This document shows, in pieces, positions 39,554 through 41,745 of a DNA stretch of 64,000 nt. The notes under the pieces were generated by a model, which saw only the letters and a program-made list of their open reading frames with translations, made no database searches and was not told the origin of the DNA. Numbering within the stretch: the stretch's first letter is position 1; the number at the start of each line of letters is the position of its first letter. Position numbers and translations under genes: made by a program. Where the stretch lies: the NCBI GenBank assembly GCA_020348445.1, contig CP070751.1, forward strand, positions 628,321-692,320, written 5' to 3'. This DNA comes from Thermoplasmata archaeon. GTDB lineage: Archaea > Thermoplasmatota > Thermoplasmata > GCA-020350865.

Positions 39554-39793
39554 ATGGTTTCTAATCTGGAGTATGATGACATGGATACCACAGCATTACT
39601 CGGTATGTTCTCGATAACTGCAGGTCTGGTTTTCTTCTTCACAAGCGGTGCATTCTCGATAATCAGCTCTTCCCTGGGAATGTTATTCCAGGGAATTGGG
39701 ATAGCTCTGATTTACCTGGGGATCGCATTTATTTTATGGAATGTCCTGAGCTCGCTGAACATCTTTTTAGAAAGGTTCGTGAAAAGAAGTTGA
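39554..39793 (+). CDS. Small two-TM membrane protein
   Basis: 79 aa, two hydrophobic helices. Confidence 0.5.
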   Translation: MVSNLEYDDMDTTALLGMFSITAGLVFFFTSGAFSIISSSLGMLFQGIGIALIYLGIAFILWNVLSSLNIFLERFVKRS

Positions 39794-39800
39794 GTGGAGG

Positions 39801-39903
39801 GCACCCCGTCCAGATTTATTTTGATCTATCGTCTTAGTGTTCGAGTTATAATTTTTCATCAATTGTTTCTTAAGCTCGAACACTAGACGGGAGCACGAAT
39901 CAA
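39801..39903 (-). repeat. Palindromic cassette of the same family as the tRNA-Ile array, carrying the tRNA-Glu 3' end
   Basis: TAGTGTTCGAG (39835-39845)/CTCGAACACTA (39875-39885) arms, GACGGGAGCAC (39886-39896), GAATCAA. Confidence 0.85.
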
Positions 39904-39920
39904 ATAAAAAATAATATAAG

Positions 39921-40069
39921 TGCTCCCGTCGGGATTTCCGAGCCGTGGGAGGAAATGGAGTGGTGAGTCCCTCACCACGGGCATTCGAACCCGAGTCGTC
40001 GGCTGTCCTTGGCAATTTTAGGAAAGCCTCGAAAGGCCGAAATGATTGGCCGGTCTACACTACGGGAGC
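39921..40069 (-). tRNA. tRNA-Glu(TTC) with two introns (37/38: 40005-40029; 59/60: 39935-39983)
   Basis: GCTCCCG/CGGGAGC acceptor; removing 25-nt and 49-nt inserts gives a 75-nt cloverleaf; BHB-type junctions. Confidence 0.9.
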
Positions 40070-40081
40070 ATGTTTGTGGAT

Positions 40082-40243
40082 GTCGCATATTACTTCAGAT
40101 CAAACATGCGACTAAGTGGCGGCTATGCCGCCACGGTAGGACACATTTGCGAATGCCGCGCATCTGAACTAAGCAAATGTGCGATTAAGTGGTGCGAGCA
40201 TTGCGAGCACCACGAAAGGTGCAAAATGCGCCAGCATTTTGCA
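40082..40243. ncRNA. Candidate structured RNA: five consecutive hairpins with complementary loops
   Basis: Perfect stems of 7, 8, 9, 7 and 10 bp; loop TTCAGAT complements loop ATCTGAA. Confidence 0.45.
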
Positions 40244-40395
40244 TTATTTGCGAATGGATTTATACCCAAGTGCTCCGAAGGAACACGATTTCATCCAAGG
40301 ATGGATTTCGGGTGAGTATGATATAATGTATATTTTAATATTGCCTTCAAGGACGATCATCCCTGGTCAGGAAAAGAATGCTGCCCTGAGCAGAT

Positions 40396-41745
40396 TCAAC
40401 TCTTCTTTTTTATTTTGACCGTTATCATGCGTACAACTACGAGCAGCAGGATAAATAACCATATTCCCCAGATAACCATTCTACCCCAGTAGGGCAATTC
40501 GGTTTTCGGCCTACTGCTTGCAGGTTGCGAATCGAGGATGAGCGTTATGGGCTTTTTATCACTTATATCAACGGTTGTATAGTTGCTCATAAATCCCTTA
40601 GCTGTTCTGAATATAAAAGGAGTATAGATTATCTCAGTATTGCTGCTGTCGATTTCATATTCCCTGAGTCTTACGACTCGAAAATTATTTAATGTCTCAT
40701 TACTCCAAACCATTTTTCCATGTTGATCCCAGATCGTCAGATTCACGCCATCCACAGGATCATTTTTTGAGTTGTATATCTGGATGAAAATCTCCCATTC
40801 CAAAAGGACATTTCCAGCCCCATTTCTCCTCCCGTCTTTCTCGAATATATTGTCGTTGTGATCTGCCCGGATGTCAAGGGAATAGATTCCCCATTTCGAG
40901 TTGCCGTATATTTGGTTGTTGGTTGCATTGATTTTTGCTCCGTGCCCCCATATCCCAAATCCATCATTCGAGGCAATTGTATTGTTGCGAACATCCATGT
41001 ATACCCATTCTCCTATGATACCGCTTGAGGTATTGTTAGATATTTCGTTTCCTATTAATGTGACATAACCACCCCAGAGGCAGGACACGCCGATTTCATT
41101 CTTGGTTATCGTGTTATTGTATAGCAACGGTGATCCAGAGAAGCTTACAACACCACCATAATTGGAATGAATTGTATTGTTAAAGATAACGGCTGTCCCA
41201 TAACATATAATACCATACTCGGTGCTATCAAACACGGTGCTGTTTGCGATGTAGACATCACCAAAGTAAGTGAAGATTCCTCCTGCGATACGGCTAATTG
41301 TGGAGCGCTCCATGGTCATATTTCCCCATACTGCAAAGTAATATGCATGGCGGTTTGCAGTGATGTTGGAGTCATAGATGTTCAGTCTCGATCCTCCATC
41401 CACCTCAATTCCTGTGATCCCACCCCTAGAGGAGTTCATAATAAGAACAACATTGTCCAAAGTTAGGGTGGCATTTTCTACTACAGTCAAATTGCCGTTT
41501 ATTATGATGATTTCGTCGGATACATATGTATCGTTTGCGATAATCCAATCACCTTGGATTGGGGCAGGATAATCTCCTGTACCGTCGGCTATGCTGTTTG
41601 ATAAGAAAGAACTGAGTGTGTTAAAAAGGCATATGAAAATGATAATTGGATATACAGATTGTTTTAATGTACTGGCCCTGCGATTCATAACAAATGAGCA
41701 AATTTCTACCAAGTACTTTAATCTTATGGTGGCCAGTTGGGTCAT
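40396..41745 (-). CDS. Secreted right-handed beta-helix (NosD/CASH) protein with C-terminal TM
   Basis: Repeated I.NNTI.SN..GI motifs; GDWII.N.T.V N-cap; start may be 41688. Confidence 0.8.
   Translation of the reverse strand: MTQLATIRLKYLVEICSFVMNRRASTLKQSVYPIIIFICLFNTLSSFLSNSIADGTGDYPAPIQGDWIIANDTYVSDEIIIINGNLTVVENATLTLDNVVLIMNSSRGGITGIEVDGGSRLNIYDSNITANRHAYYFAVWGNMTMERSTISRIAGGIFTYFGDVYIANSTVFDSTEYGIICYGTAVIFNNTIHSNYGGVVSFSGSPLLYNNTITKNEIGVSCLWGGYVTLIGNEISNNTSSGIIGEWVYMDVRNNTIASNDGFGIWGHGAKINATNNQIYGNSKWGIYSLDIRADHNDNIFEKDGRRNGAGNVLLEWEIFIQIYNSKNDPVDGVNLTIWDQHGKMVWSNETLNNFRVVRLREYEIDSSNTEIIYTPFIFRTAKGFMSNYTTVDISDKKPITLILDSQPASSRPKTELPYWGRMVIWGIWLFILLLVVVRMITVKIKKKS

Follow-up and report, generated by a model that had tools for sequence, protein, structure and literature searches.

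The structured block at positions 40082 to 40300 of the window (the whole 64,000-nucleotide stretch of DNA from a Thermoplasmata archaeon analyzed here) is best explained as a self-folding repeat array of about three tandem units that lies in the 5' leader of a tRNA-Glu(UUC) gene with two introns and would be removed together with this leader by RNase P. The probability of this reading is put at about 0.5. The array is one member of a fast-evolving, lineage-specific family of tRNA-linked fold-back repeats that is apparently undescribed; full-text literature searches found no published account of tRNA-linked or leader hairpin repeats in archaea. It displays the position at a tRNA end, the orientation, the hairpin core (hairpin B, described below), and the variable tandem copy number that characterize this family. 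The host genome is archaeal and consists of a single 5.16-Mb contig, in which the SSU rRNA (archaeal), the 5S rRNA, and the RNase P RNA (184.8 bits) are all detected.

All five stems listed in an earlier note on this DNA are present. They are located at 40082-40112 (arms 40082-40091/40103-40112), 40116-40134 (40116-40123/40127-40134, 8 of 8 positions paired), 40142-40181 (40142-40150/40173-40181, 9 of 9), 40189-40213 (40189-40200/40202-40213), and 40220-40243 (40220-40229/40234-40243, 10 of 10). The 241-nt block has a predicted folding energy of -89 kcal/mol on the minus strand (z score, -5.54) and -93.7 kcal/mol on the plus strand (z score, -6.19), with none of 200 shuffled sequences folding as well in either case. 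The array is oriented along the minus strand, the same as tRNA-Glu, and its first stem is separated from G1 of the tRNA (position 40069) by 12 nt, as had been stated. A scan of positions 39600 to 40700 against Rfam 15, at the gathering score and at E values of up to 10, gives no gathering-level match, and the best sub-threshold hits are spurious miRNA models with E values of 0.17 or worse.

On the tRNA strand, each unit opens with hairpin A, whose arms are Y and Y'; the pyrimidine linker CCUNCC comes next, then hairpin B, and finally the sequence UUAGUCGCA. Hairpin B has the form (C)CGUGG, a variable stem, a loop, and CCACU, and is found in three copies within the array. The linkers in the window read CCUUUC or UCCUACC, and the junction UUA(A/G)UCGCA leads into the next arm Y. 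The duplicated module with a shared TGCGA(C/T)TAAGTGG...CCACG junction, described previously, is indeed there. The motif TCGCA recurs approximately every 35 to 75 nt. The flanks of hairpin B in the window consist of no more than a degenerate CCUNCC and UUAGUCGC.

From 5' to 3' on the minus strand, the array starts with a variant of hairpin B (40264 to 40292; CGUGUUCC-UUC-GGAGCACU), whose stem at 40270-40286 includes 7 pairs, one of them U.G; on the plus strand, the latter becomes a C.A mismatch, which agrees with the suggestion that this stem pairs better on the minus strand. The next unit (40220-40183) is headed by the 10-bp hairpin A, UGCAAAAUGC-N4-GCAUUUUGCA (40220 to 40243), which occurs once in the genome but is found with other loops in the arrays of three related genomes (G001, G002, and G004). 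It continues with the CCUUUC linker, a hairpin B with the GUGGUGC..GCACCAC stem (40189-40213), and the UUAAUC junction; this segment (40183 to 40219) scores 28.3 bits with the hairpin B model R2. The following unit (40181-40110) contains hairpin A' (40142 to 40181; CACAUUUGC and GCAAAUGUG around a 22-nt loop) and, at 40110 to 40140, the UCCUACC linker, hairpin B (GUGGCGGC-AUA-GCCGCCAC, stem 40116-40134), and the UUAGUC junction, which together form the top model match in the genome. With the hairpin B covariance model, the matches in the array score 35.8 (this last one) and 26.9 bits. The last unit (40068 to 40112) has two mutually exclusive hairpins, GUCGCAU/AUGCGAC (40082-40112) and GCAUGUUUG/CAAACAUGC (40068-40076/40101-40109). 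The second of these abuts the tRNA and pairs its arm with the final seven bases of the leader plus G1-C2 of the tRNA; it is also present in the paralogous array and in most related arrays.

The kissing-loop contact proposed in the earlier note, between TTCAGAT and ATCTGAA, is a different matter. The complementarity itself exists and, if one mismatch is allowed, reaches 11 nt (40090-40100/40162-40172), one half lying in the 22-nt loop of hairpin A'. However, the paralogue lacks the 7-mer pair; there and in 11 further homologous arrays, hairpin loops are complementary over 2 to 4 nt at most, which in most of the arrays is no better than between shuffled loops. In the minimum-energy fold of the window, one of the partners is located outside any terminal loop. 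The same sequences, together with arm Y' of unit 2 and arm Y of the last unit, can form a long fold-back with hairpin B at its tip, and this is the minimum-energy structure when 40088-40174 is folded alone. A kissing-loop RNA complex was rejected, as the loop-loop complementarity is neither conserved nor covarying among homologues, and the pair is regarded as part of an alternating inverted-repeat layout rather than a tertiary contact.

The host gene, tRNA-Glu(UUC), occupies positions 40069 to 39921 of the minus strand (149 nt), with the acceptor and D arm starting at 40069, and contains two inserts. The intact sequence is missed by both ARAGORN and Rfam, and in silico removal of the inserts leads to an ARAGORN call of tRNA-Glu(ttc). 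The anticodon-loop insert is approximately 25 nt long (about 40006-40030); the T-loop insert is approximately 49 nt long (about 39933-39982) and includes a hairpin-B-like stem at 39960-39978. On the 3' side, a fold-back element lies on the same strand (39794 to 39920); it comprises an inverted copy of the tRNA 3' end and the hairpin GUGUUCGAG..CUCGAACAC. The 29-nt loop of this element (CTTAAG...TTATAA) is inverted relative to four homologues, including the paralogue, G001, and G004, with alignment scores of 9 to 14 in the inverted orientation versus -6 to +1 when the orientation is kept; the loop has flipped between inverted arms.

Upstream of the array, at 40310 to 40346 of the minus strand, lies a promoter-like block with a BRE/TATA-like sequence, AATATTAAAATA (40331-40342), and a conserved putative start region, TCATACTCACCC (40310-40321). 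The block, GAATATTAAAATAT followed after about ten bases by TTATACTCACCC, is retained upstream of tRNA-Glu(UUC) in all five genomes of the genus, at distances of 45, 155, 188, 273, and 341 nt from the gene. It fits the archaeal BRE/TATA consensus, and we assume on this ground that it serves as a promoter. The CUC loci have a different conserved AT-rich block, taken as a second promoter type, in front of their arrays at 135 to 282 nt. In archaea, the TATA box is usually located about 26 nt from the start site. An internal promoter in the loop of the last hairpin (the conserved TAATATG at -23 to -17) was rejected as too near G1 for this spacing; it is the sole AT-rich motif inside the array and is too close to G1 to serve the tRNA. 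Because the promoter-like block conserved in the five genomes is upstream of the array, the array very probably belongs to the tRNA-Glu transcription unit as a 5' leader of approximately 230 nt.

Under the preferred reading, transcription would begin at the BRE/TATA-like block, some 270 nt ahead of the tRNA. The units, each made up of arm Y, a loop, arm Y' (which duplicates the final bases of the leader), CCUNCC, hairpin B, and UUAGUCGCA, would fold as separate hairpins, and the whole leader would then be cut off by RNase P, making such an insert cheap for the cell. The pairing might be retained in either of two ways: unpaired antisense arms could trap the leader or the 5' end of the tRNA, or template switching at the DNA level could restore imperfect palindromes. 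The evidence gathered here contains no sign of a trans-acting or switch function of the array.

The relatives of the array vary widely in sequence and size. BLAST searches of the region against its own genome find a single paralogous array, located 514 kb away upstream of tRNA-Glu(CUC). In each of the four other genus members, tRNA-Glu is preceded by arrays with the same layout. Such arrays are likewise found upstream of tRNA-Glu in the only genome searched from a second family of the order and, with different hairpin sequences, in three genomes from another family of the class. Two further families have a cleaner form, in which the 5' end of the tRNA is copied exactly and followed by a hairpin and an inverted copy. 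The number of units ranges from one to four in G000 (this genome) to G005, G019, and G030, and units within a single array are near-identical in G004, G030, and G006. Over its last 120 bases, the leader shares 74% identity with the CUC paralogue of this genome and only 52 to 61% with tRNA-Glu leaders from the rest of the genus, where shuffled sequences give 50 ± 2.3%; arrays from different species cannot be aligned. A pattern with 14 specified bases, used in a wide scan of contigs, retrieved only chance matches in unrelated bacteria. These comparisons show that arrays expand, shrink, and get replaced quickly through tandem duplication and are exchanged between the two tRNA-Glu paralogues of one genome, a rapid turnover that does not characterize a conserved RNA gene. 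The earlier proposal of a tRNA-cotranscribed noncoding RNA or processing leader therefore holds in part: there is a structured element on the tRNA strand, very probably within the tRNA-Glu unit given the promoter-like block upstream, but the barely alignable leaders, with their 52 to 61% identity, show that it is not a dedicated conserved noncoding RNA.

Nor is the core hairpin specific to this locus. In this genome, copies of hairpin B lie next to about a dozen tRNA genes (Ala, Lys, Thr, Phe, Ser, Pro, Arg, and Gly), and the DNA preceding many tRNA genes is just as strongly structured as the tRNA-Glu leader. A whole-genome search with the hairpin B covariance model gives 17 matches at E values below 0.2, every one of them beside or inside a tRNA gene or its repeat units and in the orientation of the tRNA, and all 16 hairpin B pattern matches face the same way as the tRNA. 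The inner pairs of hairpin B covary, with 94% of them paired and none of 500 shuffles reaching this value, a result that is partly circular, as the seeds were chosen for pairing. By eye, the layout of a tRNA 5'-end copy, hairpin B, and an inverted copy is seen at the genes for tRNA-Ala(UGC), both tRNA-Ala(GGC), tRNA-Lys, tRNA-Thr(CGU), tRNA-Thr(UGU), tRNA-Ser(UGA), and tRNA-Phe and at a gene at 4,127,488. Explicit sense and antisense copies of tRNA ends are found at the Ala, Lys, and Thr genes of this genome and upstream of tRNA-Glu in G006 and G024. The 5'-end copy in the units of the window is too degenerate to prove, and among the tRNA-Glu arrays only those of other families show such copies explicitly. 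One of the outcomes named beforehand as speaking against a noncoding RNA, a dispersed DNA palindrome repeat, comes close to this picture. The approximately 20 copies of hairpin B in the genome are all linked to tRNA genes.

In related genomes, the model has matches in all four genus members and in the sister family, just upstream of tRNA-Ala, tRNA-Glu, or tRNA-Arg on the same strand wherever ARAGORN finds a tRNA. Because matches are weak or absent elsewhere in the class, hairpin B is specific for the order, whereas the layout is more widespread. Two features of other tRNA loci may be mentioned here. A tRNA-Arg(GCG)-like gene with a T-loop insert (G000:C1:5061300-5063300, 550-850) escapes both ARAGORN and Rfam; behind it stand two tandem units of 94 nt, in each of which a duplicate of the tRNA 3' end is combined with a T-rich tract and a perfect hairpin B. 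Across the genome, the motif (A/T)T(C/T)CGC(A/T/C) recurs 8 to 16 nt ahead of the mature 5' ends of many tRNAs (at Glu, Ala, Leu, Ser, and Lys genes) and ahead of tRNA 5' copies and could be a start-site or processing signal copied with each unit.

The comparison with the CUC paralogue also addresses selection on the stems, for which a covariation check had been advised. There are three compensatory double changes, one in hairpin B (G-C to A-U) and two in the tRNA-abutting hairpin, and none that disrupts pairing; the stem of hairpin A' is unchanged. Both linkers are identical, and the loops, including that of hairpin A', differ at approximately 45% of positions. This pattern argues for constraint on the pairing and the linkers. 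Full conservation of the linkers and the UUAGUCGCA junction points to a stronger constraint than a harmless fold would require, which counts against the preferred reading. Palindrome-perfecting template switching in DNA could yield the same compensatory pattern.

We consider it rather unlikely, although a serious competitor, that the array is a functional structured leader RNA, whose hairpins regulate the maturation of tRNA-Glu in cis or after release by RNase P or act as small RNAs or protein sponges. A possible variant is that the alternative pairing in the last unit frees or sequesters G1-C2 and the -1 to -7 segment of the leader. The compensatory stem changes and invariant linkers relative to the paralogue, the presence, in each of the two paralogues, of mutually exclusive hairpins where the leader meets the tRNA, the recurrence of the tRNA-abutting hairpin across families, and the orientation fixed relative to the tRNA are all in favor of such a function. 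So is the excess of c(UUC)g triloops ahead of tRNA genes, counted on the tRNA strand (9, compared with 0 for the complement and about 1 expected from the genome-wide frequency), a bias that fits a fixed orientation and does not separate RNA from DNA; hairpin B loops in the form of cUUCGg tetraloops were sought, and their count is zero. A functional leader is harder to reconcile with the number of units and the sequence, which vary even within the genus, and with the UUC locus of G001, which keeps the promoter but has no hairpin-repeat array. In that genome (G001:C1:3168300-3169900, 558-900), the promoter is followed immediately by a truncated copy of the tRNA (its first 31 nt), another structured insert of approximately 100 nt, and the complete tRNA-Glu(UUC). 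The lack of conservation of the kissing pair and of an Rfam family match also counts against it. Furthermore, three counts of G.U versus A.C strand asymmetry (25 versus 24, 3 versus 5, and 3 versus 4) show no G.U excess in stems that are almost free of mismatches; because G.U pairs are rare and no more common than A.C, RNA-level constraint on the tRNA strand is not demonstrated by these counts, which also weighs on the preferred reading.

Just as unlikely, and just as serious a competitor, is the explanation that the palindromes do the work in a small DNA repeat, mobile or recombining, whose targets are the ends of tRNA genes, with transcription being irrelevant. Such an element could be REP- or PATE-like and moved by an HUH Y1 transposase, or the palindromes could be remnants of integrase att sites, cruciforms, or protein-binding sites. 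G.U pairs are almost absent from the stems, which are close to perfect Watson-Crick palindromes, TCGCA recurs along the array, and the antisense loops read C-GAA-G, which is a very stable mini-hairpin in DNA. The loop of the adjacent 3' fold-back has been physically inverted with respect to four homologues, a DNA event, and tRNA-Glu has gained a hairpin-B-like insert in its T loop since its divergence from the orthologues. The genome encodes five Y1 transposases (Y1_Tnp), but no match of the hairpin B model is found near any of these genes, and the exclusively tRNA-linked copies, about 20 in number, are unlike the dispersal of REP-type elements. The segment 40082-40300 contains neither an integrase-sized insert nor a long direct tRNA repeat, and the loop length of hairpin A, which is otherwise conserved, varies from 3 to 6 nt across arrays, which makes a dimeric DNA operator less likely. 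Next to no weight can be given to chance palindromes or to a small protein-coding gene: overlapping ORFs of 45 to 89 codons do exist (40046-40315 and 40179-40418 on the plus strand and 40123-40269 on the minus strand), but the folding z scores of -5.5 and -6.2 oppose chance, and homologous arrays that differ in length and share no alignable sequence leave no possibility of a conserved reading frame.

It is rather unlikely, but worth stating, that a single family of small hairpins colonizes all discarded parts of tRNA transcripts in this lineage, namely, leaders, trailers, and T-loop introns, by duplicating the adjacent segment of the tRNA. The T-loop insert of tRNA-Glu is absent from the orthologues in the four other genomes of the genus and shows 80 to 86% identity to the inserts of tRNA-Gly(CCC) in this genome (G000:2879773-2879867) and in G001, as well as to a portion of a 3'-linked repeat unit that follows a tRNA-Gly(UCC) (G000:5100360-5100417). 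It looks like a recent transfer between tRNA genes. Its internal hairpin reads CCCGUGG..CCACU and is scored weakly (17.1 bits, E value of 0.029 over 72 kb) by model R2, which was built without this insert; besides the two seeds, it is the only match in the window with an E value below 0.9. These similarities are suggestive of a common origin of the leader units and the T-loop insert and may serve as a lead rather than proof. If the colonization scenario is true, the leader arrays and the T-loop insert of tRNA-Glu would be products of one process, and there would be a concrete, testable route for the arrival of new noncanonical tRNA introns in archaea, which a 2026 preprint calls an open question.

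The tRNA-linked repeats (TLRs) of Escherichia coli are the nearest described analogue of the array. According to what PMC8144298 relates of them (Egan and Landy 1978; Rudd 1999), they lie immediately downstream of a tRNA or rRNA gene, with 18 to 19 bp at the 3' end of the repeat identical to the 3' end of the gene. As far as that account goes, the similarity is considerable: both are short, free of genes, confined to tRNA or rRNA transcription units, and present in one to several copies per locus, and both are cotranscribed and processed (in the array presumably), mostly with no known function (PMC8144298). A duplicate of the neighboring end of the stable-RNA gene, though degenerate at best in the array, may be a further common feature. 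In contrast to the TLRs, as portrayed there, the archaeal array is upstream of the gene, forms hairpins with sense and antisense arms, and has at best a degenerate copy of the 5' end. It contains no copy of the tRNA 3' end, the hallmark of the TLRs, although the separate element at 39794-39920 does carry such copies.

REP, BIME, and REPIN elements are extragenic palindromes that are moved by RAYT (Y1 HUH) transposases and dispersed over hundreds of intergenic sites with no tie to tRNA genes. The array shares with them short, imperfectly conserved hairpins with a conserved foot and a variable stem, tandem or inverted clustering, the absence of coding capacity, and, presumably, passive transcription. 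It differs in having approximately 20 copies, all tRNA-linked and in the tRNA orientation. Assignment to REP/BIME with a RAYT was rejected, as hairpin A is unique in the genome, the hairpin B matches are all tRNA-linked, and none of the five Y1_Tnp genes is near a match.

Noncanonical tRNA introns of archaea can transpose between tRNA genes, according to the work on Thermoproteales as reviewed in PMC4090602 and the Asgard census (bioRxiv 10.64898/2026.10.13.758758). Like these introns, as those sources present them, the array consists of short hairpin-containing inserts in discarded parts of the pre-tRNA that have been gained repeatedly, and the hairpin-B-like stem inside the T-loop insert of tRNA-Glu, common to tRNA-Gly(CCC), provides a possible link. 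However, the array is outside the mature tRNA, so that RNase P, and not the splicing endonuclease, would remove it. An archaeal BHB tRNA intron, which would interrupt the mature tRNA and be bordered by a bulge-helix-bulge motif, was rejected for the array, which is wholly 5' of G1.

Partial tRNA duplications are found at the att sites of tRNA-targeting archaeal integrases, and the pTN3-like ones use the 5' half of the gene (PMC8371274). Extra copies of tRNA segments beside an intact gene are a common feature, but att remnants are direct repeats that flank an integrated element. They leave unexplained the antisense arms, the shared conserved hairpin, and the tandem 70-nt units between the promoter and the gene. 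A CRISPR array, with near-identical direct repeats around unique spacers of regular length, was rejected as well, because the direct repeats in the block are just 7 to 14 nt long and irregularly spaced.

Archaeal pre-tRNA leaders are usually thought to be short and unstructured. For tRNA-Glu, a hairpin-repeat leader of 100 to 340 nt is the rule across this genus and beyond, and related units occur at many other tRNA genes. This affects annotation, as the tRNA-Glu gene is missed by both tRNA finders, and the discovery of noncoding RNAs, as hairpin-repeat arrays resemble novel structured RNAs. The possible kinship between the leader hairpins and the T-loop insert is a lead on the gain of tRNA introns. 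As a separate observation, approximately 25 tRNA genes, mostly intron-poor and including a second, intron-less tRNA-Glu(UUC), are clustered within 3 kb of this genome (G000:C1:4640570-4643566). The other tRNA genes are scattered, intron-rich, and flanked by repeats, and the cluster, which differs from them, may be of mobile-element or viral origin.
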